From: Neocallimastix sp. 'constans'
Lineage: Eukaryota
Reading direction: 5' to 3'
Length of the DNA: 64,000 nucleotides
Assembly: GCA_050613775.1 (NCBI GenBank)
Contig: JBODTK010000014.1
Coordinates: 1,178,001 to 1,242,000, forward strand
Below are positions 11,062 to 63,791 of the stretch, one piece after another. The stretch's first letter is position 1, and every line of letters begins with the position of its first letter. Position numbers and translations under genes: made by a program. The notes beneath the pieces were generated by a model, which saw only the letters and a program-made list of their open reading frames with translations, made no database searches and was not told the origin of the DNA.

Positions 11062-11811
11062 GACTCACACTCTACCAATCTTTAATAAAACTGAATTTCC
11101 ATTTCATTTTGTTAGTCGAAACTTAAAGAAAGACGAAAAGAACTATTCAATAACCAAGCAAGAGGATTACTCTGGGTTCTACCGTATTATGAAATTTAAA
11201 TCGTACATATCGTGTAATTAATTGAAACCATATTATGTACTAACTGTATTCAATCCGTCAATTAAAACAGATTATAACAATAAAAAACACCTATACAATT
11301 TAAACAAATAAAAATAAGTAAATTCTTTTATTAATAAATTCTTTTATTAATTATAAATTTCTTTTATGTTATTAACTGTAAAATAGTAAATTGCTAATAC
11401 ATCGATTTAATTGAGAAAAATTCCATGTATTTATATTTTTTCTTATTATATTATTAATATATGATGTTATTTAATAATATATATAAAGCTATTTATTTAT
11501 AAACAAAAGATTTTTTAATTAATAATTTTATCATTCATTAATTTACTAAAACTAGAATTAATTTATTAAACTATTTATTTTATTTATTATTTTAATACTT
11601 ATAATAATTTCAATTATATATTTAACATCGAAAAATTATTTTTATTAATATTAACTATTTAAAATTATTCCTAAATTAATATTTAACTATTTAAAACTAA
11701 ACTAGGTTAACTAAACCAATTAATTAAATTAAAATTTCATATACATTAAATAAATTAATTGTACGAGAAATTAAACTATTTAATGTATTAAAGATTTATT
11801 AAATCTTTACA
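11062..11811 (-). mobile_element. Degenerate 5' LTR with PBS-like TGGTAGAGTGTGAGTC
   Basis: Minus strand starts TGTAAAG at 11811; same family as 6336; TGG-initiated PBS-like sequence at 11062-11077 just past the inferred LTR end. Confidence 0.5.
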
Positions 11812-12930: not shown

Positions 12931-12934
12931 ACAT

Positions 12935-23343: not shown

Positions 23344-24726
23344 TCATTTTTTTGTTTGAGTTTTAGTTGTATTTTTATCATTTAAATTTGTTTCAAAAAT
23401 TAGTTTAAATCCATTTATATTATTATTATTATTATTTTTTTTTAATTTATTTATTTTGATATTGTGATTATTTTTCTTTTTCATACTTTTGATACTATTA
23501 CTTTTTAAGCAACTTTTTCTACTTTTCTTAATTATATTTCTTTTCTTATTTGAATTATTTAATGAATTATTGATTGAATTTTCTAATTTTCTTTTTCTTA
23601 ATGGCTTACAATTTTCATTTTCATTAATATCAATTTTATTTGTATTTTTGATTTGATTAAAATCTTCCAAGATGCTATGATCAGAATAAAATTCAAAATA
23701 CGATACGTTATCTGATATTCTGACTTTTTTATCTTTAGATTTAGTTTTGGCTTTAAATTTATTTTTGTCATTCAAAATTGTTTCAATAATTATCTTATAC
23801 ATATTTGTATTATTATCAGTGCTTTTTAATTTATTTATTATTTGATTATTCTTCTTCTTCTTCATACTATTAATACCATTATTATTTAAAAATTTTTTAA
23901 TCCTTTTCTTTATTATATTTCTTTTTTTATTTAAATTATTTAATGAATTATTTACTGATTCTTCTAATTTTCTTTTTCTTAATGGTTTGCAGTCTTCCTT
24001 TTCATTGATATCATTTTTATTTGTTTTTTTAATTTGACTAAAATCTTCTAAGATGCTATGATTAGAATAAAATTTAAAATAGGAAACATTATCTAGGATA
24101 ACGACTTTTTTGTTTTTACGTTTATGTTTAGGTTTAGTGTTAGTGTTAGTTTTATTATATAGAACCGTTTCAAGTGTTGTTTTATTTACATACGTACAGA
24201 TATCATGGCTTGCTAATTTATTGCTTTTTATATTTTGATTGTTCTCAGAAATACTGATATTATCATTATTTTTTTTTTCATGACAAATTGGAAGTGTTTT
24301 GAATTTTTTTAATTGATGGTTACTATTTTTTTTTGTTAATTTCTTATTATTAGTATTAATAATAGGAATATTATTCCTTTGAATATTTTCATTATAATAA
24401 TTTGCATTTGAAAAAGATAATTTAATATTGTCATTACAAAATATATAATAAGTATGTTCGTTATTAATTTTATTTTGACATAATGGACCTAGTTTTTTTG
24501 ATTCTTTCAGAATGTTTTTCATTTCATTTGCGTAATGCAAAGGAAAAGAAATATCATCATGAAAAGTTTTATTTATTGTGAATTTTTTTATATATGACAC
24601 TCTCTTGTATAATAACATATTATTATTAAAATCATTTTGTTGAATTCTAGTTTTTTCTATAATATATGATTCACCATTATTGGTGAATTTAAAAATACTA
24701 GTATACTTATTAATGGTTTTTTTCAT
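23344..24726 (-). CDS. Orphan Lys/Asn-rich protein with two internal repeats of about 125 aa; likely start MKKTINKY
   Basis: 1.4-1.5 kb open frame in AT-rich DNA; KKVxIxDNVSYFxFYSxHSILEDF...CKPLRKRKLE occurs twice, with a third frameshifted copy at about 23170-23340. Confidence 0.65.
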   Translation of the reverse strand: MKKTINKYTSIFKFTNNGESYIIEKTRIQQNDFNNNMLLYKRVSYIKKFTINKTFHDDISFPLHYANEMKNILKESKKLGPLCQNKINNEHTYYIFCNDNIKLSFSNANYYNENIQRNNIPIINTNNKKLTKKNSNHQLKKFKTLPICHEKKNNDNISISENNQNIKSNKLASHDICTYVNKTTLETVLYNKTNTNTKPKHKRKNKKVVILDNVSYFKFYSNHSILEDFSQIKKTNKNDINEKEDCKPLRKRKLEESVNNSLNNLNKKRNIIKKRIKKFLNNNGINSMKKKKNNQIINKLKSTDNNTNMYKIIIETILNDKNKFKAKTKSKDKKVRISDNVSYFEFYSDHSILEDFNQIKNTNKIDINENENCKPLRKRKLENSINNSLNNSNKKRNIIKKSRKSCLKSNSIKSMKKKNNHNIKINKLKKNNNNNNINGFKLIFETNLNDKNTTKTQTKK

Positions 24727-26199
24727 AGTTTTTAAAATAATAAAATAAAAATTTTGAATAAAAATTAAAAATGTAAAATAACTAAAATATAACATTGAAC
24801 AATATTCTACAATGGTAATATTAAATTTTTGAAAAAAAATTAAAAGTATAAAGTAATAAAAATATAACATTATAAAATATTTATAAAAAAATGTTTTTTT
24901 ATAATATTCTTTTATTATTTTTTTTTGCTGTTAATAAAATATTTAATTATATATTTTTTTATTTTTTTTTTTTTATTTATTTTTTTTATTCTATTTTTTA
25001 TAATAATAAAAATATCAGTCAATTTTTGCTTTAAAAGTAAATTTAAATAATTATAATTATAACCAGTAATAATAAAAATGATTTTTGAATTATTAAAAAA
25101 AAATAATAATAAAAATAAGAATTAAAAAAAAAAGTATTGTATTTATATAGTAATTAATTTATTGCTTAGCAAAATTTTTATTTTCAATAAAAAAAAAGTA
25201 CGGACAGTATTTTTTTCTGTCCATGTTTTTTTTTTTTGGTTTTATATTTGTTCTGACCAATTTTTTTTTTTTAAATTAATTTTAAATTCTTTTTATTATA
25301 AAATATTTAATTGTATATAAATTTTAAAAAGGTAAAAAAAAATACAGTTTTTAATTAAAAACTTTTTTTCTTTATTATTTTTTGTTTTTAAATATATATT
25401 TAACTTGTAAATTGGTTATTCCTTTATTATTATTAATATTATTAATTATTATTAAAGTTATCAATTTTTTAGCATTTGTTATCAATCTATTATATAAAAA
25501 ATTTAAAACAAATAAAATATTTATTTATTCTTTTATGATTTTATAGTTATATACAATAATAAAATGAATTATACATAAAATAAATTAGTTTTATATTATA
25601 TAATTAATACTGTATTTTTTTATTTCTTATTTTTTTATATTATATACTAGTTAATTTTTCTTTTTATTATCTTTATTATCTAAATATATAAATAATATTA
25701 TTATTTACAATATAATATAATATTTATAATATAATTATAAATTAAATATTAATATTTTTATAGAAATTATTATTATTATTATCAATAAAAGATATTATAA
25801 TACTTTTTAACTTCAATTAATTATTCATAATTATCATTAATATAAAATACTTGACATCTTTAAAAACTTAAATTTATTATTATTATTATCATAATTAATT
25901 ATTAATTAGGTTATTATATTAAATATTTGATTTAACTATTTTTATTTTAAAGAAAAATATAAAAAAAAAAATTTAAATTATAAAATAATTTATATATATA
26001 TATTATTAATTAATTAATTTTAATAATTTATATTCAAAAAAATTTTTTCTATAAAGATGTACAAAAAAGAAATAATTTTTTTTTTATATATTTATAATTT
26101 AAATATATATTTATATATTTTTAATATTTTTCTCTTATACTTTTATCTTTATTTATATTAATTTAAATTCAGTTATATATTTTTATATAATTTTATTCT

Positions 26200-30333: not shown

Positions 30334-31439
30334 TATGTTAGAATAAATTTATAAGTATATACATTTTTATATTAAATATTTTATTATTATTATATAATTA
30401 TTATATAATAATCTTGATTTTTAACAATTATTATTTATTATATAGTTTTTATTTTTGTTATAATTTTTACTTCTGTTACAATAATTAATATTTTTTATCA
30501 TTATTACTATACTATTATTAATTATTCTAATTATTAATAAAATAAATAATTAACACATATGAAATATCAAATAATTTTAATAAGAAAAGGAAATAAAATA
30601 AAAAAATAATAATAAAAATTAAAAAAAAAAAATAACAAATTAATATTTCCTTTTATTAAAATTATTTAAAAATGTTTTAAAATGTATACACATAAATGTA
30701 ATATTTTATTATAATATCAATTATAAACAATACACTTTATTTCTCTATCAATTAAATGTATACATAATTTAATATATAATAATTCATAATTAATAATTAA
30801 TATTATCTTATAAATAAATATAAATAAGTTTTTTTTTTTTTTTTTTTTTTTTTCATTATGTTCATTATTTTATTTTTATATCATTTAAGAAAAATTATTA
30901 ATAACAATATTACTTAATCCTTTTCATTGTATTGTTTGAGGAATAAAAGGTTTATATAATAATATTAATTAATAGAAAATATATTAAATTTTAATTTAAT
31001 TTAAACATTTTTTATAATTTTATTTGTATAAAATTTTAATTTGTTTTATATGAAAATTAAAACAGTTCTTACATATTTAAAATGAAAGATATTTTTTTAA
31101 AGTCATATTTCATTATTTTGAAGGTACATTAAGTTATTAAAATATGAATTCTTTTTAATATACTTCTAAAACATTCAATATTAATACTTTTTAAATTAAA
31201 TAATCCATTTTAAAATAATAATAATAATAATAATAAAAATTAATAATTAATAATTAATGATAATAATAATTAATAATTGTTAATTTAATCATAGGTTAAA
31301 ATGAGAGGTCTAATAATTTGAGTATATAACTTTTAACTATTTTAATAATTATTTATTAATTTATTAATTATATTTTTTATACTATTTTTTTTTACTTTTC
31401 GAAAGTGGATAAACAACTTATAATTAACTTATTTTTTCA

Positions 31440-32030
31440 AGATAATTAGAATATCACAAAAAGAATCCTCCTTTTTTATAATTCATCAATTAACCAATAT
31501 AAATAAGTTTATTGATTTTTAATTACACCCTAATAATGTAACTTTCTGAATAATAGTCATTTCTGAGTTGTTAACCTAATTGTACCACTACTCACATCAA
31601 TAGGTGCGTATTCTGAAAGTGGTTCATCAAGAATTTATTGAGTAATTATATTTTAATTATTATTTAAACGGATTAAAGTTTTTCCGGAAACACATTCAAA
31701 TGAAACATCTAAAACATCCCTCATGATAATATCTTCTTCACATGGTTCATTACATTTGCTTTTATAAGTGTGGTTGATATTATTAATGATCATAGTCGTG
31801 ATTAACACATTATCTAACACCACTAAGATATTATATTGGTTTCTCTCCAATTTAATTCCTTGTAAAAATTAATATTTCAATTTTAGAGTGGCATCCATTA
31901 ACTATCCAAAAGTAATATTGCAATGAGAATATTTTAAATCTTTGAAAATAACATATTTCTTTACCCCAGATAGCATTTTAATTGTTCTAGGTACTCTAAA
32001 AATTTTGTTTTCTTTTTGGATATCACTATT
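31440..32030 (-). pseudogene. Ty3/gypsy pre-protease/protease fragment
   Basis: KMLSGVKKYVIFKDLKYSHCNITFG*LMD parallels G3 KLLEGIEPYDIIEELQNTPANITLAQLI. Confidence 0.55.
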
Positions 32031-32912
32031 TTTATTATTTAACGTATATGTTTAATTTAATTTATTATTTTTTTATTAATATTTTAATTACTTTCTTGTT
32101 TACATTTTTATATTTTTGTAATTAAAAATAATTTTTCATTGTGCTTTTTATTAATTAATTAGCTAATAGGAAATTCGAAATATTACTTATTCTAATAAAT
32201 AATTTTTATATTTAATAAAATTAATTAAATTATTCTAAGTATTATAACCTGTTTATGGTTCGGGTTTTATTAGAAATTTTATTTAATTATTTAATTTTTT
32301 ATTTTTTTCTGTCTACATTTTAATTATTGAAAAACTTCACTTATTTATACTTTTTGAAAAAAAAATAAATATGTAAAGCCTTTCTACATTTTATTATCAT
32401 ATTTAAAAAAAATAATTTACTATTACTAATTACTTCAAATTTTATATCAATTTAACTTAATTCATAAGTATTTTTATTTTAATAAATTTTGTTTATATAA
32501 TTTTATATTATTTTTCATATACTAAAACTAAATTATTTAATATATACGAAAAGTAACAAACAAAATTTAAAAAGATTTTACAGAAAAATAAAGTTATTTT
32601 AATCAAGAATATTAATATAATATTCTTATATTTTATATAAAATAAATTTAAAAACTATAATATATTTAGTATTTATTATTAATCAATTAAGATTTGATTT
32701 TATTTGTGGGGAATAAAAATATTTAATAATCAATTTAAAAATAAAATAAAATACTAAAAAGAATACAATTTTAATATTGATACAATATAATAATAATATA
32801 ATAATATATTTGAAAATAAAAATAAAATTAATATTGATAATAAACACTTTAATAAAATAATAAAATTTAAGGTTAAATTATAATATTCCCCTTTATCTCC
32901 ACAAATTTTTCA

Positions 32913-33704
32913 TGGTATGGTTCATACAGTTTTGGGAAATATAAAAATAATTAACACAAATAATAAAATAACAATAAAAATATTTTTGTTTTAAAATCAA
33001 TATTTATTTATTTAAATTTATAAAAGAAAAATAATAATAAAATAATTATTTAATAAAAAAAAAGTTATTCATTATATTTTATTTCACTAAAAATTACATG
33101 TATTTATATTTTTTTATCAAATTAAAATTTGTAAAGCCTAACTATTTCTTAATAAACTAGTTACTAATTATTTTAATAAATAAAACATTTAAACTGAAAT
33201 TGAATTATTATTTTAGTTAATAATATTATTGTTATATGTTATAAATATTAGTTTTATATTATTGAATTATTAATTATTTAATAATAGTTTAATATTAATA
33301 TATATAAAATAAAAATAAAGAGATTATACAGAATATTTTAATTGTGGTTTAGTTAAATGTAATAATTAAAAATAAATTTAAATTGATACGAAAATTTTAA
33401 TAAATAATTAAATAGATTTGATTATTTTCAATATAACAAATTACAAAAGAAATATAATATTAATATATTAAGTGGGCAAGGACAATATTCTTGGCTAAAG
33501 ATTTTTAATACATTATAATGGAATCGGATCGATAATTCAAAAAGGAATTATAAGTTGATTGGTGATTTATTAACTTAAGATTTCTATTTAGTAATATTTG
33601 AAGAATATTGGAAAGTTCCAATTATATAGAATAGAATAATCTATAAGGTTAGAATAATTTATATTATTCTAGAACAATTAGTATTATTTGTTCATTCTGT
33701 ATTA
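32913..33704 (-). mobile_element. Solo LTR A1 (array 1, unit 1)
   Basis: TGGTATGGTTC...CATTCTGTATTA; near-identical to 42596-43383; strand inferred by analogy with G2 LTRs. Confidence 0.8.
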
Positions 33705-33707
33705 GCA

Positions 33708-34537
33708 TGTAAGAATCTATAATTATTTGCTAACAAATAATTATATTTTCTTAGTTAAGTTATTATAACTATAACTTTATTTAATTACATATAATATTTA
33801 TTTATTAAATTTATTTAATTTAATTTTAAATATTCATTAATTTAACAAAATTTATTTAATAATATATTTACAATATATTAATTTCTCTATTGTAACTAAT
33901 GTATTCTGTATTGTATTCTGTATTTTATTAACTATTTAATTTTATATTTTTTATATAAGGATAAATTATATGATCGAAATATCTTTTATTATTTTATTCT
34001 TTTATTTTCGATCATTAGATTAGATTGGAAAATCGTTTAATTAAGATTTTTCCCAATTACTTTTTAGAAGTAATCGGTTTTACTTAATTAATGCGATGAT
34101 CGATATGGATAGAATATCGATCGAAAACTTATCTAGGTTTTTCTATCTAATCTTTTCCTAGATAGGAGATATGTTAAGATTAGAAAACCTTCTTATTTAA
34201 CCTTATTTTCATAAAAAAATATAAATAAGGCTCTTGAGTTCTCTTTGAGAAATCAAGAGTTATTATTATAAAAACATAGTTATAATAGTAACAATTTTAT
34301 ATTTTTAACTTTAATAAATTAATAAAATATTTTATTCAAAAAACATATTTTAAAATCAAATTTATACAAATAATTCTTCTTTTGCTTTTCGTGTTATTAT
34401 TATAATTAATTTTATAATAAACTCTATAGGTAAATGATTTATTTTATTTTATTTTCTATTTTCTCAACTTAATGAATTAGTCGTTAAGTTGTAGTTAATA
34501 ATTCTGTTTTGAGTTAGTTCTTAATAGAATTATTACA
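33708..34537 (+). mobile_element. Solo LTR B (5-bp TSD class, (T/C)AGCA)
   Basis: TGTAA...TTACA; inverted relative of 39911-40874. Confidence 0.85.
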
Positions 34538-35179
34538 CAGCAGTGGTACAGGACTTTTGAAATTGATGGATGTATAATAATATATTGGTAAATAGATAAT
34601 GGACGTATTAAAAGTACTAGAAACTTATATAATATTTATTTATTTATTGACTATTTATTAATTTATTTATTTAAAAATTTATTTAACTATATATTTATTC
34701 ATCCATTTATTTATTTGTTCATTTATTTATTTATTCCTCCATTACATAAAAAAAAGAAAAGAGAGAGATTTAAAATAATATTATTACAAAATATTTTATA
34801 TATTTTGGTAATACATTGATTAGTTAAAAATAATTTTGTGTAACAATAAAATAATAATAAAATTTTAGATATGAATATTAATAATAAAAATAATAAAAAG
34901 TTTATAATATAAAATAAAATTTATCAAATGTATAATAAAAATATAATAAGAATATAATAAAATATTTATTTTATAGCAAAATATTAATAATTAATAATAT
35001 ATATATTTATATAATAATAAAGAAAATATTGATAAATTTAATAAAGATAATAATTAATTAATAAAATAGATTTAAAACATATTTATATGGAGAAATGTTA
35101 AAATTATTATAATTTAAGGTATTTGAGTAAATACCGTATCATGATGCCCCCGTTAAGTTTAGACTTCGTCCTTTGAAGT

Positions 35180-36210
35180 TTATACTTCGCATAGTCTGTA
35201 TGGTACAATGTTCTTTAAGTGAACATTTCTCTCAGCGATTTCATTAGTTACAGGATCGCAAAGTGTGACCGTGTTAAATTTCTTCTTAACTATTTTCATA
35301 GGGCCAAGGAAGAACTGGTCTAATTTTCTTCGGTTAATAAGTTTGACAAGGACAAGATCACCAGGGTTATATTCAGCCTTCATTCTCTTCATTTGTTTTC
35401 GCCTGTCTTCCCATAACTTGTTAGAAGTATTAATGTTGTTGATGGCTTCTTTAATCCAGGCATAATGTTTAGTAAATCTTCTTATTAAAAATTCTTCTTC
35501 ACTTTCGTATTTTTCTTTCTTGTCTAAGTTCAGTGTTAATTCAAAGGGTTGTAAATCGCGACGTCCATATAACAACTCAAAACTGGAAAATTTAGTAGTT
35601 TCATTCTTACAGGTGCGAATAGCCCATAAAGCGCTTGGTAGCATCTCATCCCAAATGGTAGTGTTGCGATTACAAAGAATTCTCAAGTACTTGCCTATTT
35701 CTTTATTTCTATTTTCGACTTCGCCGTTGGATTCTGGATGGTTTGTTGTAATATAGTGTACGTAAACTCCATATAAGTTGAAAAAAGCTTTCGTTTTGTC
35801 CGAACAGAATTGGGGTCCGTTGTCCGTTATTAAAATTACAGGCGTTCCATGTCGAGCAAAGACTTTGGATAGAAATTGGATAACGTCATCTGATTCAATG
35901 TTCTTAGTGGGTTCAGCTTCAACCCACTTATTCAGGTAATCTACTAAAACTATAATGTATTGATTACCTTTCTGAGTAACTGGTAGAGGTCCTACAATGT
36001 CTAGACCTACCTTAGTAAATGGAAGACCGGGTTTCGTGGCTGTATCTTCAGGTTGATAGTTAAATGTTTGTGGCTTAAAAAGTTGACAAGTTTTACAGGT
36101 TCTGACCATGTATTTAACATCTTGTATCATGTTGGTCCAATAGTAATCTCTTTTCAAGCGGTTGTATGTCTTGAAAGTACCTTCGTGACCAATACCATGG
36201 GCCTTAAGAA
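35180..36210 (-). CDS. G2 integrase (HHCC, DDE, GPY/F-like; no chromodomain)
   Basis: CKTC, VGLDIVGP, ITDNGPQF, NGEVENRN, FLGPMKI. Confidence 0.9.
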
Positions 36211-37610
36211 TAAGTTTGTTATTTCTTGCTTTAAAGCTTGAGTTTGAACTTTGGACAACCGGTATCCTTTCCGCTTGATCGGCTTTGCATTTTCTATTAA
36301 TTGAATGGTATGTGGAAGCAGTTTCGTTGGCTGGAGTTCATCAATTTTGATTGCTAGGATGATGATGAATTCATGAAATAGTGAGTTGACTTTTCTTCTG
36401 TATTTTCTTGGTAATTCATCCAATACTTTGTTCAACAGCTCTTGTTTTTTTAATTTTCCGTCTTTAACTTCTTCAATTTGATCTATTTCATCATGGTAGT
36501 TCTCATCTTTGACCTTATTTACAAGATTGTGATGCTCAGTATCGCCACTCTCCTTCGATACTTCCTCATCAGTCCCTAAAGGAGACACACGATCCCATGA
36601 TTCTTCACTGAGCATCTTGCATAAGTGATTGTCGATAGGATGTACGAATAATTTATTGTCTTTTAATGTATTGAATCCTATAAGTATATCGAAGATATTT
36701 TTATCATTTTCAACAACTCTAAATACATCTTTAATTGTGGTATCCCCAATTTTGACATCCAATAGATAAAGTTCTGAATCCAATTTCTTCTCAGAGAAAA
36801 TTTGTACAATATTATTATTTGTGTACCCCATTGGTACCAAGTTTTGTTTTTCTTTTATCCTTGTTAAGTAATTTTTTGTCACCAAGTTTAAGCTAGCATA
36901 GGTATCCAAGAAAACTATACCTTCAATCCCATAAACATAACATTTTGTGCTGGCGATATCACTTCTTGAAATAGTAGATAGAACTATTTCGTTTAGAGAT
37001 TGTCCTTAAGTATTGCTGTCCTTTAGCTTAAGTAGTTTAACTAGTTCCGATCTAAGCTTAGGACTTATATCTAGTAGCTGTGTGATGGAAATATTAGCTA
37101 GTTTGTTGTTTAAGTCATCAGAGATATCATAACTGTTCTTTCCTTCCATCAAGGCTATATGTTTTTCGGTAGATGTCCTTTTAGATTTGGCTTCTTCGGC
37201 TTTATCACTAGGAAGTTTTCCTTTTGTTACTTCTTTAGATTGATCATCTCTTGATTAATGAGTACTTGTTTCAGTTTCTTCTATTATTTCCTTTTCTTTA
37301 TCTAATTTGGTTTTTCTTTTCACGGACTTGATGGATGGCTGAGCTATCACAGAAAGGTCAATTTCTTCAAGCTTTTCTGTGGTAGTAGGTGTAGACACTG
37401 GTGATTCAAACTCCATAGCGGTATCCTGAGTTGCGGCTTTTCCTTTCCTAGATTTTTCTTTTGAAGAGTATGGGGTTTCTGCCATGCTAATATTCTTTTT
37501 CTTTCTTCTTACTACCGCTGCTAATATATCATTATTTGGAACTAGTGGTAAATGGTTCTTTTCGTTGGTTTGACTAAAGGAAGTTTCCCTTCTTCCTTTT
37601 ACCAGTTTAA
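36210..37610 (-). pseudogene. G2 pol N-terminus and protease, truncated at the start of RT
   Basis: FLDTYASLNLV; PTKLLPHTIQLIENAKPIK...LKQEITNL joined directly to the integrase zinc finger; stops and frameshifts. Confidence 0.85.
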
Positions 37611-38467
37611 AGATTTATTTTCTTTTTGAAGTTGGCCTTTTTCTTCCATCTCTGCTAATTCCCTGAAAGAGTAAGGACATTGGTTTAAGTAGTGTCCCAC
37701 TTGACCACATTTACAGCATTTTCTATTATTTTGTTGATGCGTGCTTGAGTTATCTTGGCGTCTTCTGGTCTGTACTTGATTTGACTTCAGTTTATTTTCT
37801 TTTACATACCTATAATCGGGTCGTTATCCCTTGTGTTGTATTTTCGGTTACCAAAGCCCTTGAATGGATAACCTCCGTAGTTGACTTTATAATAATAAGT
37901 TTGGTTGGATTGAAATGTTGCTAAAACAGTTTCAGGCTTACGTAGGAAATTTTCTTCAGCCCTTTCGGCTAGTTCGGCTTCTTCGAAGGTATCCTCCAGG
38001 TCATAACACCTTTGGGTGATTACTTGGGACCTTGCATAAGGTCTACTAGCAATGGATTCAATGTAATCGTCTACCGTAATGAAAGATTGGTATAGTTTGG
38101 AAAGACTATTGTAGAGCTTCTTGTACCTCCAGTAAAAGTTTTGAATACTTTCACCCTTTCTGATTCTAAGTTTCTGGAGTCTCTTACATTTTTCCTGGGG
38201 AGTAACTTCAAGAGCATCTTCTATAGCCTTTTTCATCTGGTTGATGGATGGATACTTCTTTCCTCCTTCTTCATCGGTAGTTACTAAGTCTTGAAGTATA
38301 CCTCTTAGTTTGCCTTCCACACATTCCATAGCCCAGGAATGTATATTCATAGGTTCAGTGATGTTTGCTAGTCTCATGATCCTAGCAAATTCATCACCCC
38401 AAGAATCCACATCTCTTGTTGCTTCGTTTAGACGATGTAAGATCTCTTCGAGTTCCCTGATCTTCAT
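37599..38467 (-). pseudogene. G2 gag with CCHC knuckle; frameshift near 37802
   Basis: ORF 37802-38467 is similar to G3 gag; CCKCGQVGHYLNQC lies downstream in another frame. Confidence 0.85.
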
Positions 38468-38587
38468 TTGTTTAGTATTTTTTTTTTGTTTTATTTGTTT
38501 ATTACTATTATTATTTCGTTTATAATATTTTATTTAATCTTCTTTCTTTTTGACTATCTATTAATGTTTCATATTATTATACTTTCG

Positions 38588-38604
38588 TCCTGCATAGCTC
38601 GCCA
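38588..38604 (-). promoter_or_regulatory. PBS TGGCGAGCTATGCAGGA (tRNA-Arg-like)
   Basis: 7 nt from the 5' LTR end; TGGCGAGC matches tRNA-Arg(ACG)-type PBS. Confidence 0.7.
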
Positions 38605-39112
38605 GAAATTATGGTACAGGACTTTTGAAATTGATGGATGTATAATAATATATTGGTAAATAGATAGTGGACGTATAAAAAGTACGAAAAACTTATATAA
38701 TATTTATTTATTTATTTATTGACTATTTATTAATTTATTTATTTAAAAATTTATTTAACTATATATTTATTCATCCATTTATTTATTTGTTCATTTATTT
38801 ATTTATTCCTCCATTACATAAAAAAAAGAAAAGAGAGAGATTTAAAATAATATTATTACAAAATATTTTATAAATTTTGGTAATACATTGATTAGTTAAA
38901 AATAATTTTGTGTATCAATAAAATAATAATAAAATTTTAGATATGAATATTAATAATAAAAATAATAAAAAGTTTATTATAATAATAAAAGAAATATTGA
39001 TAAATTTAATAAAGATAATAATTAATTAATAAAATAGATTTAAAACATATTTATATGGAGAAATGTTAAAATTATTATAATTTAAGGTATTTGAGTAAAT
39101 ACCGTATCAACA

Positions 39113-39905
39113 TGTAATAATTTCATTATAATATTTATTATAACAAAATTAACTACAACCTGATATTAACATCAAGTTGAGAAAATAAGAAAACAATTAG
39201 AAAAAATAAAGAAAATTTTAAGTTATCTTGACAAGGAAGAGTTTATTATAAACAAATATAATAATCAACACAAAATAAAAGAACACTTATTGAAAATGTT
39301 TGTAGATTTTATTTATTATTATTATATATTTATTAATATTTGTTATATAATAATAACTCTTGATTTCTCAAATATTTAAAGAAATCAATAGCTATTTATA
39401 CCAAAAATTAAATAATAAAATTTTATAAATTTTATATAAAATAATAATTTAAAAGGTTTTCTAATCTTAACAATTATCTTATCTAGAAAAAGATTAGAAG
39501 AAAAAACTAGATAAGTTCTTTAAGGAAAAACCAATTTATTATTATAATAAATTAGAAAAAACCTTAAAGTCCAATAAAATTAATTTATGTTTTAATAAGA
39601 AAATAAAAAACTTTAAAGTCCGAATAAGTTGATTCAAATTTTAATTAAAAATAATAATTAAATAATTAATTTATTACTATAGAAATTAATAAATTTTATA
39701 ATTAAATAAATTAAATAAAATAAATGTATACTAAATAAATTTAAAGAAAATTTTTAATTAAATTAAAATTATAATTAAATGTACAAATACATATTAACTT
39801 GATAAATAATTACTAATTTAATGAATGAATGTATAAATTATGTAATAGATAAATAATCAAATAAAGAAATTATAATTATTTAACAAATAATTATAGTTTC
39901 TTACA
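39113..39905 (-). mobile_element. Solo LTR C (5-bp TSD CAACA)
   Basis: TGTAA...TTACA; near-identical inverted copy at 47914-48695. Confidence 0.9.
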
Positions 39906-39910
39906 CAACA

Positions 39911-40874
39911 TGTAATAATTTAATTATAGAATTAATTATAATTAAATTATTAACTACAACTTAATAATAACTAAATAATAATTATTATTAAATTGAGAAA
40001 GCAAAAAAGATAAATATACTTATCTTCTATAAGAGAGAGTTTATTATAACTAATTATAATAAATTAATAACACAGAATTTTCAAAGAGAAAAGATTATTT
40101 TATTTTATTTTTAAATTTGTTTTATTAAAACTTACTTTATTAAAATAGAAATATAAAATATTTATTAATGTTATTACTATATTATAATTGTTATAATAAT
40201 AACTCTTGATTTCTCAAAGAGAATTCAAGAGCCTTATTTATACTTTTTTGAAAAATAAGGTTAAATTAAAAAATGTTTTCTAATCTTAACAAATCTCTTA
40301 TCTAGGAAAAGATTAGAGAGAAAAACCTAGATAAGATTTTTGATCGATATTCTATCCATATCGATCATCGTATCAATTAGGTAAAACCAATTACTTTTAA
40401 GAAGTAATTGGGAAAAACCCTAATTAACCGATTCGCTAATCTAATGTAATTGATCGAAAATAAAAGAATAAAATAATAAAAAATATTTCGATCATAAAAT
40501 CATAAATTTACAAATAAGGAAAATAACATAATAAACATAATAATGATATTAATAAACAAAATACAGAATACATTATTAAAATACATATTAGAATACATAA
40601 TATACTTATTTACAATTTAATTAAATAAATAAACTAAGACTAATAAATTTAATAATTAAATGTATAATTAAATAAACTATAATTATTTATAAACGTATAA
40701 ATAATAATTAATTAAATAAATTTTGTTTTATTAAATTAATGAATATTTAATATTGTGTTAAATAAATTATTAATAATATTTAAATGAATAAATATTATAT
40801 AATTAAATAAAGTTATAATTATAACTTTAAGAAACTATAATTATTTTATTTAAAAATAATTATAGATTCTTACA
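39911..40874 (-). mobile_element. Solo LTR D (5-bp TSD CAACA)
   Basis: TGTAA...TTACA with CAACA on both sides. Confidence 0.9.
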
Positions 40875-40880
40875 CAACAG

Positions 40881-41676
40881 TGTTAAGGTTTTAGAGAATT
40901 AAATAAAAATAAAAGTAAAAAAACACAAATTTTATTTATTTATTTATTATTTTATTTATTAATTTTATTAATTGATTGATGATTTTTAAAAATTGTTAGC
41001 AAAATTTACAACTATTTATACTTTTTTCAAGGCATAAAAGTTGTTCTTGCCACTAAATTGCATTTCATTTTTTTTTTATAAAAACTATTAAATTTAAATT
41101 GATTTTTATAATCAATTATATAAAATTTAATTATAACAATATAAATAAAATACATTTATAATATTAATAAAACATTTTTTTTTTTTTTTTATAATCTATC
41201 TAAAATATTACTAATACGAATTTAATTTATTGGCTATAATTTTTATTACAACCTGTTAAAATATTCAAATAAAAATAAAAATACTATTCTAATATTAAGG
41301 TTTTTAATAAAATAAAATATTTGTCAATATAAAATAAAACATTTCAATATAAAATTTTATAATAAAAGTTAAAATATAATATATAAATTTTTAATTATCA
41401 ATATATAAAAAAAATATTATTAATAAAAATTTTCATTATTAATAAAAAAGTAAGATTTATTATTAATATTGCTAATATAAGTTTTAAATATATAAAAATA
41501 TTACTATTAATATAAGATTTAATATAAAAATATAAAGTTTAATAAATTTTTAAATCCAAAGATCAAAAATTAAATCAAAAATTATATTAAAGTACAAAGA
41601 TAATAATGTACATATAATGTATTAAAAATAAATCGTAAATTTAATTAAGAATGTATTATTTAGTACATTCTTATCA
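40881..41676 (-). mobile_element. Solo LTR E (4-bp TSD ACAG)
   Basis: TGTTAAGGTT...CATTCTTATCA; ACAG at 40877-40880 and 41677-41680. Confidence 0.85.
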
Positions 41677-41692
41677 ACAGAAACAATAAATA

Positions 41693-42384
41693 TGTTAAGG
41701 AACGAACAAATAATGTTAATTTTATTATTTTTCATAAAAATAACTTAACCACTAAAATTAAATTATTTATTTCCTTACTTGGAGAACTTTCTTATGTTCT
41801 ATTACTGCCAAATTATTACTAATATTAAATTTATTATTATTAATATAAATTCTTTATTAATATCAATACTTTATTATTAAAATTAATACTATATTATTAA
41901 TATCAATGTTATTATCAATATCTAGTTTTATTAATATGATTTATTCTATCAATATTTTATTATTAAAGAAAATTTTATTTTACAAGTATTACTAATACAG
42001 ATTATTTATTATTAAAAAAATTAATATAACTAATGATTTAAAAATATTTTACTTAAATCCATGATCCTTGTCATTAAAATTAGTAATATTTTCTTCCAAA
42101 ATACACCCTATTTATAATAAGATTAATAATAGATAATAATCTAAAATACTTTTATTTAAAAATAGTATAAAATTAAATAATACTCTATTACTAATAGTTC
42201 TGTAAAAGTAATAAAATTATTTTTAAAATATATTATCACTACAATTAATAATAAATAGTTTAGAATTTAATAATATGTAATAATTATTTATTATAATAGA
42301 ATAGATTATGAATTTATAATTTAAATACAATTCAAACATGTAACTCTAAGATATTCTAAAGAAATGGCTTGATCATTTCTATCG
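41693..42384 (-). mobile_element. Probable degenerate solo LTR P
   Basis: TGTTAAGG start, CATTTCTATCG end; no clean TSD. Confidence 0.5.
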
Positions 42385-55558: not shown

Positions 55559-58500
55559 GTAATAATAGTAATAATATAAATAATAATAATAATAATAAAA
55601 ATAATAAAAATAATAATAAAGATGGCACATTGGAAAACAAAATTGACATGGATTCAGTGGAATTAAATATACCTGCATCTAATATTGGTAATAAATTTAA
55701 CGATAAAAATAATAGTATAAAAATATTGGAACAAAATAATAAGAAGAAAAAAACTACTAGGGTAGGCCAAATCATTAAATTATTAGAGGGTATTGAACCT
55801 TATGATATTATAGAAGAATTACAAAATACCCCAGCAAATATTACTTTGGCCCAATTAATAGGTATAAGTAGTGCCCTACGTTCAGATATCACTAAAAGTT
55901 TTAAAAAGGTAAGAACTGAGGATGATGATGCAGTGGTAGGATGTGCAGAATATCATAATGATATAGAAGAATTTGAAATAGTAAATAATCCTACCCATTG
56001 CTACGCTACAAGAGAAATTCAAGAACACGATATTGCTATTGTTAATGGTACGGTTAATGGTCATTCTGCTGCTGTATTAATTGATGGTGGTAGTAATACA
56101 AATTTGGTAACCAGAAATTTTCTAAATAAAAATATTAAAAATTATACCATAGTTGGTTCTACTTCTGGTAGAGTGCATCAAGCATTATCTAATACGGAAG
56201 AACGTGTTTATGAAATGGTAAAATTAGAAGTACAAATTGGTACTCTAAAAATTAATGCAGTCTTTAGAGTATTTGATAATGATGACTCAATATTTGATAT
56301 AATAATTAATTTAAAAACTCAAGCAGATTATAAATTATTAGTAGATGCAGATAGTAAATATTTATACGTAAAAAGTGGTATTAATAATGTTAATGGTGTG
56401 TTTACCTTTAGTGCGGTCCCATTGGTTCCTTTAGAAGATGTACATGAACTTCATACACAGTGTATGTTTTGTTATATATTAGAGAATAATACTAGTATTA
56501 ATAATGTAATTAGTACCAATAAAATTAATACAACTAATAAAAATAAAATTTTGGAAGAATTAATCAGCAATATGGATATCAAAGATGGAAATTTTAAAAA
56601 TGAAATTAAATCCATATTAACTTCATATTCAGATGTAATAGCTATATCTAGTGATGATTTAGAACCATCCAAATTGCTACCTCATCATATTGAATTACTA
56701 GAAGGTAGCAAGCCAATAAAACAAAAGGCATATAGGATCTCCCAGGTACAACTTTCAGCACTAAAAGAAGAATTAAAAAAATTAATAGACAAAGGATTAA
56801 TCTCACCTTCTCATTCACCCTGGTCTTCACCTATTGTTTTAGTACCAAAGAAAAATGGTAGATGGAGACTGTGCATAGATTATAGGTTATTAAATAAAAT
56901 AACAAAAAAAGATGCTTATGCTATCCCTATAATTCAAGAAATTTTTGATGCATTAAAAGATGCAGTAATATTTTCTACTATTGATCTTTTTAGTGGGTAT
57001 CACCAGATACCTATGTATGAAAGCGACCAAGAAATTACGTCTTTTACAACTAAATTTGGAAATTATTACTTTAAGGTAATGCCTTTTGGATTGACTAATG
57101 CTCCAGCAACCTTCCAACGCGAAATGAATAGGATTTTCTTTGACCTAATTAATAAATGTGTTCAAATTTATCTTGACGATATTATTGTTTATTCACCATC
57201 CATTGAACAACATTTAATCGACCTAACAAATGTATTTAAAATTCTCAGAAAATTTAAATTAAAAATGAACATTGAGAAATGTCATTTTTGTGTCTTTGAA
57301 GTGGAGGCTTTAGGACATACGATTTCAAACAAAGGATTATTACCACTAGAAAAGAAGATTGATGCAATAAAGAAATTAGATAATCCTTCTAATGTTACGG
57401 AATTACGTTCTTTTCTTGGAATGGTGGGTTACTATAGGAATTTTATTGAAAATTATGCTACATTAACTTCTCCGTTATGCAAATTACTAAGAAAAAATTC
57501 TACTTTTGAATGGACTAATGAGCATACTACTAGTATAGAAAAATTAAAGGAAGCTCTTTGTCAAGCACCTATTTTGTGTTATCCACGTTATGATAAACCA
57601 TTTATTATACGCACTGATGCTAGTTATCAAGGAATTGGTGGTGTTTTATTGCAACTATATAATGATGAAGTAGAACACCCAGTATTTTATATTAGTCGTT
57701 CCCTGCATAAATCAGAACTTAATTACCCAATAACAGAGTTAGAAGGTACCGCAGCATATTTTTGTGTAAATAAATTTAAACAATATATATTAGGTAATCC
57801 GTTCCAAACAATACTGTATACAGATCATCAACCTTTAGTCCATATCATTATGAAATGCGAACCTAATACTAGTAAACACGCTCGTTGGTGTGATTTATTC
57901 AGTCAACTACAAGTAAAAGTTGCCTACCAACCAGGGAAAAGGAATATTATTGCTGATGCATTATCTCGCATTAGAAAAAAAGAAAATATTGTAGTAAATG
58001 CTATTGTTGAAGACAATAATAATAATTTGGAAAATAATATTGAAAATAATAATAACATTGTTGATGAAAATAATGTGGAAATTATTGGTAATAACAATAA
58101 TGAAGATGATCAATCAAACTTTTTGGACGAAGTCGAAAATGAAAAATATATCTCGGAATTCATGAAAAAGTTTTTAAAAGACAGAATTGTTACTATAGAT
58201 GATAAAACATATATTAGAGATAAAGATAAATTAAGACTAGTGATAGATGATTATCTAGAAAAGATAAAAATTATCGGAATGGCTCATAGAATCGGCCATG
58301 AGGGGTTACAAAAGACGTATGATAGAATTAAGAAAAATTATTATTGGAAAAATATGATTTTAGATATAAAAAAATATATATCTATTTGTAAAATATGTCA
58401 ACTTAATAGATCTGAGCCCCTTTCTAATTTGGTTGAAATATTTCGAACTCCTGTAGAAGCTCCTTTTGTTAGAATGGGCCTAGATATTATTGGACCTTTA

Positions 58501-59301
58501 AAAACTACTACTAAAGGTAATAAATATATAATTGTTTGTGTAGATTATTTCACTTTATGGACTGAAGCAGAAGCTTATCCTTCTGTTACTTCGCAAGATG
58601 TGGTTGATTTCTTAGTGAATGTGTTTAGTAGGCATGGACTACCCCAAATAATTAATATGGATAATGGACCACAATTGAACAGTGATTATACAAAAATTTT
58701 CTTAGATTTATATGGAGTTTACATTCATTTTGTTGCCAATTATCATCCACCTTCTAATGGTTTAGTGGAAAATAGAAACCGAGAAATAGGAAAACAATTA
58801 AGGAATTTTGCTGGTAAGAACGACGAATGGGATACTCTGTTACCGTTGGCTTTATGGGCTATAAGGACTGCAAAATCCTCTGTTAGTGGATACTCTAGTT
58901 TTAAACTTTTATATGGAAGAGAAGATTTACTTCCTACTGAAATTACCTTATTGAATTCTTTGGAGGAACCTGTTGAATGCTCAATTGACGAAGTATTAAT
59001 TGAAAGAATTTTGGAACATACCAAATGGGTAAAGGATGCTGCAAACAAAAAATTAGGTACAATTAATTATTGGAAGACTAGAAGAAAAGCGAAAAGAAGT
59101 ATGGAAAAACTTCCTGAGTATAAAGTTGGTGATAAGGTAAAAATTAAATTATTTCAAAGACAAAAATTGGACCCATACTACATTGGCCCTTATACGATAA
59201 AGGAAATAACTTGGAATACGGTGAAACTACAAGAAGATAGGTCAGGAGTAATATTAAAAAGAAATATCCATATTAAAAATATTCTACCTTATAGAGAATA
59301 A
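54967..59301 (+). CDS. pol: G3 Pol (PR-RT-RNase H-IN), reached by -1 frameshift
   Basis: Frame open from 54967 (hand-translated to 55414); LIDGGS, YLDD, TDAS, IIADALSR, GLDIIGP, DNGP, YIGPY. Confidence 0.96.
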
Positions 59302-60873
59302 GTAAAATCAATTATAAATACAAAAATATAATAAATAATAATAAATTTCAAAATTTTGAATGTAAATTTCAGCAATTCATTTCAATATTTACAGCTAAAA
59401 TAGCAAAATATTATTCATATTTATGCTAATAGGACATTTAACTTATATATATATTTCATAATTAATTTTACTTTTAAATTTTCGAAATTGAAATTTCAAA
59501 ATTTCAAAATAAATTTCTAAAATTACATTTCCAATTTAAAATTTCAAAATTAATTATTAATAATTATATATATTATTCAATTATAATAATATCAAAATTA
59601 TATATAATTATTTTAAAAAAAAAAAAAAAAAAATTTTTTTTATTAATGAAAAAATTTTCAAAAATTGAGTTAAAAATTTTATAAAATTTTCAAATAATAC
59701 AATTAATCTTCATTAATACATATTTTAATAATTATTCACAAAAATATAAAATTTCTTTTAATTTTATATTTTTCCTTATTTGAACTATGATCATTTCAAC
59801 TTATTATTGAATTTGTAGCTAATTTACAGATTCAATTGAGGATTGTTCTCGTATAGAGATAAATTTCAATTTCACTAGTAATCAGCTATTTTAGCGAGGG
59901 CATTTCTGATATAAAACAAATATGTGTAGCAACATATTTGTATATTTAATAATAATTATTAAATATTAAATTTATATCTCTTTTGTCAATAATAATATTT
60001 GAAATAATTCCTTATTCATATATTATTTAATATTTATATATATATTATTCATTATAATATGAAATATATTAAATATATTAAATTAAATAGTTAATTTCTT
60101 CTAAAAATATATAATAAGAATATTATTATATATATAACTTAACTATTCATATTTATTTTAAAATTTATATTAAAAATACATAATACTTCTATATATTATA
60201 ATATATAATATAACGAAATAGTTTTAGTTATTTTAATTATAATTAAATATATATAGTTAATATTATTTATTATATTCATATTTATTATATAATTATATTC
60301 TTATATATTTAACTTTATTATTCTTATTTTCATTTTAAGAATTATATAGTTATATTTATTATATTTATTATTTTAATATATATTTATTATATATTATACT
60401 ATACTCCGATATAATATATTTTAAATGTATATTTACTATTATTAATAATTAAATTATTATAAAGATTTCTAATAACTACTTTTCTTTATTTGTAGTTTAG
60501 AGAAGACCCTTGGTTAATTGGGTTTTATAAATTAAAATATTTTAATAAAGGTTAATTAAATATAACGATACTATTAAAAATTAGTAGCACATAAAAGTCC
60601 CGCATATCAATATGACAATCACGTGTTTACATTATTTAATATATATTAATTTCAATATGTTAATAATATTTAGTTATTAGTTGGCCTAGACTAATTCCTA
60701 AATATTTTAATAAAGTTAATTTAATAATAATTATTTATTATTATTTATTAATATTGAAATTCAAATAACTGAATTATCGAAATTGAAATTGAATTGAAAT
60801 TCAGTTATTATCTTAACAATTAAGAGTATTTAATAGGAAATACAAGGTATTTAGTGACACCCCGTATCAGAAC

Positions 60874-61100
60874 TGTTATGGTTCATTGGGAAAAACAAAA
60901 TTTTTATACACAAAAGATAAAGATTTAAAATATTTATTTACACAATAACAATTTTATAATTTATTTATTTATTTAATTTTTAAATTACATTATTTATTAA
61001 ACTAATTAAATTTTATTAGCTAAATTATTACTATTCCTAATATTAATATTAATACTATTACTTATATTATTACTAATATTATTACTATTTTTATTTTATT

Positions 61101-61131
<31 letters not shown>

Positions 61132-61923
61132 TTATTATTAATTTTATTATTTATTATTATTGTTTTTTTTTTTATTTTTATTATTGTTTTGTGTTATTTT
61201 ATTTTTTTATTTAGAAGATGTTATTTTCTTCAGATATTTATATTCGATTTCATTTTTAAAGTTTAATATCTTGGAAATGAAAAAGAATTTAAGTATTTAA
61301 TTAAAAGAATTATTAATTCATTCTTAATTAAATGTTAAATAAAATTATTAATAATATGTTTAATATAAATTCCATAAAGGAATAAAAAATTATTATTTAA
61401 AAAGATATAATAAATATTTTAATTAAATGATATCTGGAATAAATAATTAAAAAGTTTTTAATAAAATTTTTAATTAAAAGTTTACAAAAATATTAATTGA
61501 ATTTTATAAAAGATAATAAATTATTTAATCATAATTTATTTTAAGTTTAATAAAAATTAATATTAATTTATAGTGTTATTGAAAGTTAATAATAATTAAT
61601 TTGATAAAAATATAATAAAAATATAAAATAATTTTAATATAGATTCAATAAAGAATTTGTTAATATAAATTTTTGAAGAGTTTATATGTATTTTAATATT
61701 AATTTAATTAAGATTCAGTAATGATTTTATAAAAAATATTTTTATAAAGATTTTAATTAATATTATAATAATTTTAATTAATTTATAATATTATATAATA
61801 AAATTTTTAATTTAATTCAGGGAAGAATATAAGAAAGTTCCATTAGTAAAGAATATAAACTTAATTATGGTTAAGTTATGTTTAAACATAACAAAATAAG
61901 TAATTTATAGTCATTCTTTACCA
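60874..61923 (-). mobile_element. Solo LTR J (TSD GAAC)
   Basis: TGTTATGGTTC...CATTCTTTACCA flanked by GAAC. Confidence 0.88.
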
Positions 61924-61927
61924 GAAC

Positions 61928-62888
61928 TGTTAAGGTTCGGAGAGAGGGAAAAATAAAAATAAGTATTAATATAAACAATAAAAAATAAACAAACAAGAAA
62001 ATTAATAAACAAAATAAATTTTTGTTTTATAAATCCTTTATTAAAATTTTTTTTTTAAAAATTACAATATTAAATTACAATATAAAAAATACAATTTTTT
62101 TACTGTTATTTATATTTTTTTTCTTAAAATAATAGAAATGGTAAAGCCATTTCTTTGTGTAATAAAAATTAATTATTAAATATTTTATATTAATTTTTTA
62201 TTATCAATAATTATTATTTAACTTATAATAAATAATACTCATATATTAATCTATTACTAATTATTTATTAACTAATCTACTTAATTATATATTTTAAAAG
62301 ACAATTTTTTTATTTTACAGAAGTTAATTCTGTGGTTTAGTAATATTTATTTAATCCTAAAGTTTAATTTTACTAAGTTTAGAAAAATAATATTTTTTAA
62401 TTATTAATATAAAATTTATAATCATTTCATCAAATTTATAATATAATATTTATAATAAAACATATAATAATAATATAACTATTTCCTTTTATGTTTAATC
62501 TTTTATTAGTAATCATTAATACAATTTTTTTAATTTGGAATTTTCCAAAGAAATAATTGATATTGATAAGTTTAATATTAATAAAAGAAATATTGATAAG
62601 ATTTTGATAAACTATAAAGAAAATTGATAAAATAAACTATATAATATTGATAAGGATTTTAATAATAATAAAATATAGATAAGAATAATAAAGGTAGCAT
62701 AGATAAGGAATTAATATTAAATACACTTTTAAATAGTATAATTTAATATGTACTAATTAGGAATATAGATTAATTTATTAGAATATAGAAAGTTCCAAAA
62801 GAATAAAGAATAAAATAATTTGTTTAAGGGTTAAATGAATCATTTAAGATGTATAACCAAAAGAACATTATTTGGGCATTCTTTATCA
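61928..62888 (-). mobile_element. Solo LTR K (target GAAC)
   Basis: TGTTAAGGTTC...CATTCTTTATCA; GAAC left, GAA right. Confidence 0.88.
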
Positions 62889-62891
62889 GAA

Positions 62892-63791
62892 TGTAAGAAA
62901 TTACTTATAAAATTAATTATAAATAATTTCTTAACTACAAATTAACATTAATTATTACTAATTAACATTAATTTGAGAAAATAAAATTAAATATAATTAA
63001 ATAAATATAAAATAATATAAATAAATAATTATACTTAACTTAAATATATGATAGAGTTTATTATAGAAAGTTTATAATAAACAATAACACAAAAGGAATA
63101 AAAGACACAAATATTTATAAAATATGTTTTATTAAAAGGGTTTTGTTTTATTAATTAATTATTTTATTTGAATTATTATTTATTATAAAAATTCTAAAAT
63201 AATAACTCTTGATTTCTCAAAGAGAACTCAAGAGAATCAAATATATATAAATTAATAATTAAATATTATTGGTTAAAATAAATACAATAATTTAATGTAT
63301 TAAATTAATGTATTAAATAAGAAAGATAGATAAATTTTATAATAAATTTATCTAAGTTTCTTACATTGCTCCCTTTACTTAATGAATTTGTATAAATTCA
63401 TTATTATATAGGAAGTAGTATATTTAAAATAAAAATTATAATTAACCAAAAAAAATATAAAATTAAATAATTTATTGAAAGTTTTGCTAACCTTAACTTT
63501 TTAACATCTAGAGAAAAGATTAGCGGAAAAACTCTAGACGAATCAATATTAAGTAAAACCAATTAACTTGGGAAAAACCTTAATATTGTTTTCTAAACTA
63601 ATATATAAATATAAGTGAATAAATAATTATAAAATTAAATAAAATAACTATAATTATTAAATGTATAAATAAAAATAAAGTTAAATAAAATGACTATATT
63701 ATTAAATGAATAAATAAATATTAAATTAAATAAATTATAATAACTAAGAAATGTAAATGAATTATTAATAAATTTATTTGTATTTCTTACA
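62892..63791 (-). mobile_element. LTR L, probably the 3' LTR of an element continuing past the window
   Basis: TGTAAGAAAT...ATTTCTTACA; followed by ttgctccttttc (minus-strand PPT GAAAAGGAGCAA) rather than a TSD. Confidence 0.8.

Follow-up and report, generated by a model that had tools for sequence, protein, structure and literature searches.

Position-specific integration beside genes that RNA polymerase III (Pol III) transcribes has been described for several Ty3/gypsy retrotransposons. Ty3 of S. cerevisiae integrates at a distance of 1-4 nt from where Pol III starts (PMC5911963) and binds Brf1 through a vestigial chromodomain (bioRxiv 10.1101/2021.07.27.453949), DGLT-A of Dictyostelium integrates 13-18 bp upstream of tRNAs (PMC6101501) in either orientation (PMC5911963), and Tj1 of S. 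japonicus integrates in a single fixed orientation (PMC4600332). Another comparable arrangement is the tandem transposable element dimer, known for the P element, hobo and R1, in which one copy of the target duplication lies between the units; these dimers are mostly of the same family and are driven by sequence or site preference (McGurk and Barbash, 2018, PMC5932611).

The locus described here lies in a window of 64,000 nucleotides from Neocallimastix sp. 'constans', the window being the whole stretch of DNA analyzed. Positions 32913-41680 hold a real stack of six units (Table 1). Its junctions, in the sequence and in the junction table, are those given by a previous sequence-only reading: A1, GCA, B, CAGCAG, G2, ACA, C, CAACA, D, CAACAG, E, ACAG. 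Every unit starts with TG, and every unit except A1, which ends in TA, ends in CA. When the units were stripped from right to left and the left and right duplications compared at each step, 21 of 23 duplicated bases were regained over B, G2, C, D and E (E 4/4, D 5/5, C 5/5, G2 3/4, B 4/5), which bears out the claimed structure and its caveat of single mismatches in G2 and B; for A1 the match is 0/4. A junction motif consisting of an LTR end, a spacer of 3-6 nt containing GCA, ACA, CGA or GAA, and an LTR start was counted 18 times in 32001-64000, whereas 200 local shuffles averaged 1.2 and reached 7 at most, an optimistic test since the motif was derived from these same junctions. It occurs once in 1-32000.

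Table 1. Features of the two stacks and their flanks (positions within the window)
Feature	Position	Strand	Remarks
Protease-region remnant of A1's G-class element	31315..32072	-	tblastn with P0158, E 1e-55
Primer-binding-site linker and degenerate PBS behind A1 U5 end	32885..32912	-	resembles TGG-starting PBS of G3 and L122
A1, 5' LTR of truncated G-class (4-bp class) element	32913..33704	-	U3 end on right, ends TA
B, solo LTR, 5-bp class	33708..34537	+	duplication TAGCA/CAGCA (4/5)
G2, internally deleted Ty3/gypsy element	34544..39109	-	duplication GCAG/ACAG (3/4)
G2 integrase: H2C2, rve core, GPY/F-type C-terminus, no chromodomain	35183..36217	-	97% identical to P0169
C, solo LTR, 5-bp class	39113..39905	-	duplication CAACA/CAACA
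D, solo LTR, 5-bp class	39911..40874	-	duplication CAACA/CAACA
E, solo LTR, 4-bp class	40881..41676	-	duplication ACAG/ACAG
Right flank of stack, 16 nt (target word + 12 nt)	41677..41692		no tRNA or other Rfam gene after it
Z, diverged 4-bp-class LTR akin to M/L, inverted	41693..42591	+	z 17 vs M
Neighboring stack (A2, F, H1, I, J, C2, K, H2, H3, H4, L, M, N)	42596..63791		sites CGAA then GAAC
F, 5-bp-class solo LTR	43387..44091	+	first 76 nt identical to 3' LTR of L246 element
Q, LTR holding nested G3, itself inside H4	51981-60818		duplication ATTA
G3, young full-length G-class element	52432..60609	+	duplication ATAT; LTRs differ by 1 substitution in 703

The units fall into two classes with constant offsets. 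In B and C the 5-bp duplication begins 2 nt to the left of the 4-bp word, as had been noticed, and D uses the register of C again. Among the 4-bp-class duplications, the stacks have (G/A)CAG, CGAA and GAAC, and the off-junction elements G3 and Q have ATAT and ATTA, respectively; these words share no consensus. These observations support the earlier proposal of positional rather than sequence-specific targeting: a host landmark, and not the target sequence, probably directed insertion. A weak base preference may exist, as both stack sites have at least two G/C per four bases (p ~0.006 for two sites at 12.5% GC). At the left edge, A1 belongs as 5' LTR to a decayed element extending leftward and is no solo LTR; the protease remnant of that element carries two frameshifts and 11 stops relative to its best homolog. 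The unmatched left flank of A1 (TTCA), also noted before, is explained by this structure because the flank is the primer-binding-site linker. The right duplication of B, a unit oriented from its relation to D, N and F, starts with CA, whereas A1 ends in TA; this discrepancy needs a mutation, a recombinant B or a later arrival of A1.

The neighboring stack comprises at least 13 units and runs beyond the window end. Its offsets and polarity are those of the first stack, and the same right-to-left procedure gave perfect duplications in 11 of 13 units. Z joins the two stacks, which are separated only by 16 nt plus Z; its U3 starts 16 nt from E, and its flanks (AATA/CGAA) are unmatched. To call the first stack independent was therefore an overstatement, the more so as families are common to both: A1 and A2 differ by 4.3% and C and its inverted copy C2 by 2.8%. 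Decay of the A1 interior was dropped as an age marker because of this small A1/A2 distance, and an inversion between C and C2 was ruled out by the matched duplications kept by both. H2 and H3 differ by 0.7% and could be a tandem duplication.

The two classes carry distant integrases. G2 has the TG...CA LTRs (34544-35141 and 38612-39109, 1.6% apart), PBS, PPT and target duplication of Ty3/gypsy elements (Metaviridae), and the order gag-PR-RT-RH-IN is present in its family (P0169, G3, L118). G2 itself retains gag, PR and IN, as had been stated, but its RT/RNase H was deleted near 36211 and its gag-PR part contains stops. PF24626 and PF00385 were not found on G2, G3 or P0215. In a quick integrase tree, the G class forms a clade separate from chromoviruses (SH-aLRT 100); its placement beside plant elements that carry an additional RNase H (support 95) is flagged as a long-branch join in a tree without DGLT-A, which makes any affiliation with the Athila/Tat or DGLT-A clade tentative. 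The F family nests among chromodomain-bearing fungal chromoviruses, far from the G class. F resembles these Tf/Tcn1-like elements in its SH3_Tf2-1 domain, single ORF and 5-bp duplication, and the best PDB match of its integrase is Ty3 (E 7e-55). Unlike them, its clade is a chromovirus lineage that has lost the chromodomain: PF00385 was counted in 0/19 of the closest F relatives vs 78/101 of the next closest, and L246 is an intact chromodomain-less element of chromovirus lineage. Both integrases stop 38-54 residues past GPF. Two distant integrase lineages, both without a chromodomain, use one site. The assignment of the 4-bp class to a non-chromodomain Ty3/gypsy integrase thus holds, but it does not discriminate, because the 5-bp class also lacks a chromodomain and the chromodomain-less G3 is off-junction.

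The geometry of the stacks has a polarity. All 13 of 13 in-register 4-bp-class LTRs (nine families; p 0.004 by family) have U3 to the right; orientations in the 5-bp class are 3 vs 3. The 4-bp element is older than its right-hand 5-bp neighbor in G2/C, A2/F and M/N, a result that rules out a fixed anchor on the left. The shift of +1 shared by C2 and K relative to the end of J shows that the right side sets the register. An anchor at the U3 end of the left neighbor is disfavored, as two slips would be needed at J/C2/K. Such an anchor would account for the mismatch of B. At local base composition G-to-A is ~7-fold likelier than A-to-G, which favors E as the youngest unit.

On balance, the two Ty3/gypsy lineages were probably, if by no means securely, stacked at one target word through a tether to a host factor just right of the site, likely at a Pol III gene start, followed by collapse to solo LTRs. 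The factor that holds the integrases of both lineages would be bound immediately right of the site, Pol III machinery at a tRNA-type gene being the predicted candidate, and each new copy would land between this anchor and the preceding copy. Every insertion would duplicate the same bases again, at p..p+3 in the 4-bp class and at p-2..p+2 in the 5-bp class, the latter thereby copying the last two bases of the previous LTR. LTR-LTR recombination would then reduce most copies to solo LTRs. The stack would have grown from left to right; once G2 was in place, the target would have changed from G to A, and C, D and E would have inherited this. That distant lineages meet at a single nucleotide agrees with a host tether, and nucleotide-precise, polar insertion regardless of the target word is present, as expected of the Ty3/Tj1/DGLT-A mode.

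G3 and Q, which serve as an off-junction control, and an N-like LTR inside gag in L123 speak against tethering to a host factor, as do the discrepancy between B and A1 and the absence of an independent age gradient. At the only visible right end (that of the other stack lies outside the window), no tRNA or Rfam gene, expected ~10-20 nt from the site under Pol III targeting, was found at default thresholds, and tethering therefore needs a lost or unrecognized anchor. This end looks rearranged; Z, with its unmatched flanks 16 nt away, may mark a later deletion or rearrangement that removed the anchor. Relaxed ARAGORN settings returned AT-rich noise only. B-boxes are not in excess (5 vs 5.5 expected), with none in the stack units save one in Z, a count that rules out an LTR-internal Pol III promoter.

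Like Ty3 and Tj1, these elements integrate position-specifically, with a 5-bp duplication in the class of F, B, C and D. Orientation is fixed as in Tj1, but in the 4-bp non-chromovirus class and not in the Ty3-like class, and with a right-hand tRNA, transcription of the 4-bp class would oppose that of the tRNA, unlike in Tj1, a point against tethering. Ty3 and Tj1 further differ in that no Pol III gene lies at the visible stack end here and that deep multi-family stacks are common to two clades; in contrast to Ty3, both integrases are too short after GPF for a vestigial chromodomain, which also tells against tethering. DGLT-A has a target duplication of 4 bp. It is likewise a chromodomain-less Ty3/gypsy element with a GPY/F end, a TGG-type tRNA primer site and many solo LTRs, but its PBS is other than that of G2, its orientation is not fixed, and the tRNA link is only predicted here. 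Tandem dimers share the single duplication copy between units; here many families, two clades and different staggers meet at one polar site.

A serious, though less probable, explanation is that the U5 end of a previously inserted LTR serves as the anchor, recognized by the integrases or by an LTR-bound host protein, so that new copies land right beside any existing 4-bp-class LTR and no host gene is needed. This accounts for all spacers with one register slip (J), equal to tethering by a host factor, requires no missing gene at 41677, and could draw on a GGTTC-like motif common to several U5 ends. However, the U5 ends of G2, H and I depart from that motif, an A-to-G change would be required counter to the mutation bias, integrases from two distant clades would need to recognize the same LTR end, and the literature search yielded no precedent. 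We regard as rather doubtful the full proposition that two unrelated chromodomain-less integrase lineages land at an integrated LTR end with single-base precision and fixed polarity, without a host gene anchor, building self-propagating multi-family stacks that log transposition order.

A non-Pol III host anchor, comparable to Sap1 for Tf1, would explain right-hand register and polarity without a tRNA. It could be a fork barrier or a DNA-binding protein with sequence specificity, perhaps located in the U3 of Z, which begins so close to E; it is nonetheless improbable, for every stack member terminates in a U3 of this type, yet no sites lie 12-16 nt beyond, and no motif was identified. Weak sequence or bendability preference with purifying selection, or recombination and unequal exchange, could have built the arrays without precise tethering; the G/C-rich sites and the H2/H3 pair would suit it, and Drosophila offers documented cases of double insertion at preferred sites (PMC5932611). 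This is very unlikely: at least nine unrelated 4-bp families and the 5-bp group sit on the same nucleotide, with different words per stack, and unequal exchange yields shared LTRs, so that the class-specific 3/4/5/6-nt spacers largely refute it. An assembly artefact joining repeat copies is scarcely credible, for although all junctions are known from one assembly only, different families are joined by spacers following the two-class rule, 76/76 nt of F agree with a contig that was assembled independently, and ~40% of the region's sampled words, not junction-specific, are present in sequencing runs of other samples.

If the anchor is Pol III, tethering by a host factor would mean that tRNA-gene targeting arose independently once more, with integrases that lack the Brf1-binding domain of Ty3 arriving at it twice within one early-diverging fungal group, and in stacks far deeper than the literature search showed for yeasts or amoebae. 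The stacks would then record in order when families were active, and on a single target they would show where two intasomes each make their two strand transfers. Should the LTR end itself act as the anchor, a new targeting principle would be at work. In either case, the intact elements L246 (5-bp class), P0169 and L118 (G class) supply testable candidate site-specific integrases in a fungal group with few genetic tools.

Relatives were sought in other sequence collections. An LTR-end pattern in a single metagenome scan gave 117 loci, none matching the units of the window; a junction pattern in genome contigs gave 60 prokaryote-titled loci, judged chance by their titles, and a short junction pattern in five MAGs fell below its reversed control. 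G2 or F relatives were not found in a viral collection, where one search gave four distant matches. Among mis-binned fungal contigs, which are short and internal, a fungal tRNA or a U3-side flank occurred in 0/24 scanned (8 + 16). L118 shows a flank on its U5 side only; this flank lies in a tandem repeat of 268 bp, lacks stack geometry and is uninformative on tethering. RNA runs contained small shares of the sampled words (0.08-0.20).

The LTR stack formed by units A1, B, G2, C, D and E is a real, well-formed feature and most likely represents a previously unreported form of Pol III-type targeting. It lies in eukaryotic DNA of 18% GC (about 12-13% away from coding remnants) made up mostly of LTR retrotransposons. 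In the one assembly available, the junctions read exactly as the sequence-only reading gave them: A1-GCA-B-CAGCAG-G2-ACA-C-CAACA-D-CAACAG-E-ACAG. Removal of units from right to left recovers one target duplication each for E (4/4), D (5/5) and C (5/5), and the single mismatches noticed earlier at G2 (3/4) and B (4/5) are borne out. The same procedure in the neighbouring stack (A2 to N) yields perfect duplications for 11 of 13 units; M retains 3/4, its right copy having been split by N, and the far end of N is not a flank. The junction motif was counted 18 times, and none of 200 shuffles gave more than 7; being post hoc, the test is generous. A single rule covers nearly all spacers: elements of the 4-bp class, named like the 5-bp class for duplication length, duplicate p to p+3, and those of the 5-bp class p-2 to p+2. 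To the left of G2 the target word reads GCAG, and at every position to its right ACAG, as expected if one change was passed on to later insertions. The two stacks had been described as independent; their target words are distinct, but both lie within one LTR array of more than 30 kb and share families (A1/A2 4.3% apart, C/C2 2.8% apart). With Z, an inverted LTR, between them, they are therefore two target words inside one array.

U3 lies to the right in all 13 in-register 4-bp-class units, and the 5-bp units comprise three in sense (B, F, C2) and three in antisense (C, D, N) orientation. In G2/C, A2/F and M/N the left copy of the 4-bp element shows that it was present first, and a stack growing from a fixed anchor on the left is thereby excluded; no order can be given for A1/B, and J/C2 is not constrained. 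Both K and C2 sit one base off the end of J, so it is the right side that sets the register. The geometry shows an anchor to the right, and mutation bias favours E as the youngest unit by about 7 to 1. A1 is not a solo LTR, as its minus-strand U5 end leads through a linker into a degenerate, TGG-type primer site resembling that of G3, and a decayed interior. Its mismatched left flank, flagged previously, is this linker, the true left duplication being at the lost far end. The LTRs of G2 differ by 1.6%, and its product is 91-97% identical to P0169, an intact protein of the family. The gag, PR and IN attributed to G2 do not make a whole element, with residues 448-896 of P0169 (RT, RNase H) missing.

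The two classes carry different integrases. For the 4-bp class, G2 and A1 provide the link to coding sequence, the remaining members being assigned from LTR similarity and a common U3 start. Among the homologues of the G2 integrase are proteins whose names refer to Orpsp1 and Neocallimastix lanati, and 14 of the 20 sequencing runs that share sequence with the region carry the label feces metagenome, so the host is probably an anaerobic gut fungus. For the 5-bp class the link is F, which over its first 76 nt shows complete identity with the 3' LTR of L246, an intact element of 1349 codons from a fungal contig that had been mis-binned. The LTRs of B, C, D, N and F are related and make up one group, which C2 joins by its similarity to C. 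L246 contains SH3_Tf2-1, lacks a chromodomain and has Ty3 as its best PDB match (E 7e-55), and the G2 integrase scores better against foamy virus integrase (1e-26) than against Ty3 (1e-16). A quick integrase tree with 56 rows (two window proteins and 54 chosen from three homologue searches) sets the G class apart as a clade of its own (SH-aLRT 100) and nests the clade of F among chromodomain-bearing fungal elements. PF00385 is found in 0 of the 19 closest relatives of F versus 78 of the next 101, and 38-54 residues follow GPF in both classes versus 107-139 in two chromodomain-bearing controls. The chromodomain-less integrase proposed for the 4-bp class is indeed seen, but the 5-bp class also lacks a chromodomain, so this absence cannot tell the classes apart.

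A Pol III-type anchor on the right that steers both classes is somewhat more probable than its negation. A host tether would bring two distant integrase clades to one base, a convergence that it fits better than self-recognition does. Among chromodomain-less Ty3/gypsy elements, insertion that is precise, polar and independent of target sequence is the established hallmark of Pol III targeting. Insertions of Ty3 fall 1-4 nt from the start site, those of DGLT-A 13-33 bp upstream (PMC5911963); of 20 DGLT-A copies, 18 lie at a distance of 13-18 bp, with Tfc4 as partner (PMC6101501). Tj1 inserts in one orientation (PMC4600332). The Ty3 duplication has a C near its gene-proximal edge (PMC6673722), and at both stack sites a C lies no more than one base from the equivalent position, which hints weakly at likeness. 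Unlike Ty3, neither integrase here has room for the vestigial chromodomain described in bioRxiv 10.1101/2021.07.27.453949. The key test of the Pol III model fails at the sole place examined: to the right of E, the only visible right end, no tRNA, Rfam gene or B-box was found. That flank is interrupted by Z after 16 nt, and the unmatched flanks of Z suggest a rearrangement at the joint, which does not prove a lost gene. Z would fit the rule that U3 faces the anchor only if the anchor formerly lay between E and Z.

Alternatively, both classes may target the ends of existing LTRs. Such self-stacking, if true, would be a new mode of integration; it is rather unlikely. A host anchor of another type is improbable; all remaining explanations together are slightly less probable still. 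Stacking is not universal in either class, as G3 (of the G2 clade, 50% integrase identity) and LTR Q lie off-junction inside H4, an N-like LTR interrupts gag at the fungal locus L123, and L118, which is closely related to G2 and shares its primer site, has one visible flank without stack geometry. Searches for relatives with flanks returned chance matches or short internal contigs only.

LTR retrotransposons of anaerobic fungi are reportedly the subject of a 2024 journal paper. Within the titles and abstracts searched, neither deep multi-family, two-clade LTR stacks nor targeted integration in gut fungi is reported. Tandems from double insertion (PMC5932611, PMC12368964) and tRNA-linked build-up of solo LTRs (PMC5006619) are already known. 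Several prokaryote MAGs hold mis-binned gut-fungal retrotransposon contigs (L118-L124, L246, L259-L262, L266).

Features of the window, with positions and accompanying observations
Feature	Position	Orientation	Observation
Chromovirus-like and G-class remnants	7049-13750	both strands	Decayed, interleaved
Copia-type element	14922-19600		Few disruptions; gag_2, Pol_BBD, SH3_retrovirus, RVT_2; not in any stack
528-codon ORF	23344-24930	minus	Lysine/asparagine-rich, internal repeat, without a Pfam match; may be the sole host gene in the window
G-class protease region	31315-32072		Decayed; interior of A1's element
Second U5-like end	32250-32900		Inside the element of A1; no LTR delimited
Stack A1 to E	32913-41680		
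Family A U3 terminus	33703-33704, 43382-43383		TA, not CA, in both copies; older than F, per F's duplication
E-Z joint	41677-42595	U3 to U3	16 nt gap, equal to the Ty3/DGLT-A distance to mature tRNA
Z	41693-42591	inverted	LTR related to M and L; starts 16 nt after E; flanks unmatched
Neighbouring stack	42596-63791		
H-family LTRs	44098-45509, 49235-51980		Internal 54-bp tandem array of variable copy number; 9-bp inverted termini
Triple nesting	51981-60818		Young full-length G3 in LTR Q in H4; the two LTRs of G3 share 99.9% identity, and its two long ORFs do not share a frame; G3 and Q target duplications 4 bp, A/T only
N	62892-64000	antisense	3' LTR of a 5-bp-class element running past the window end; two copies of a polypurine tract plus LTR start (near 63367 and 63791)
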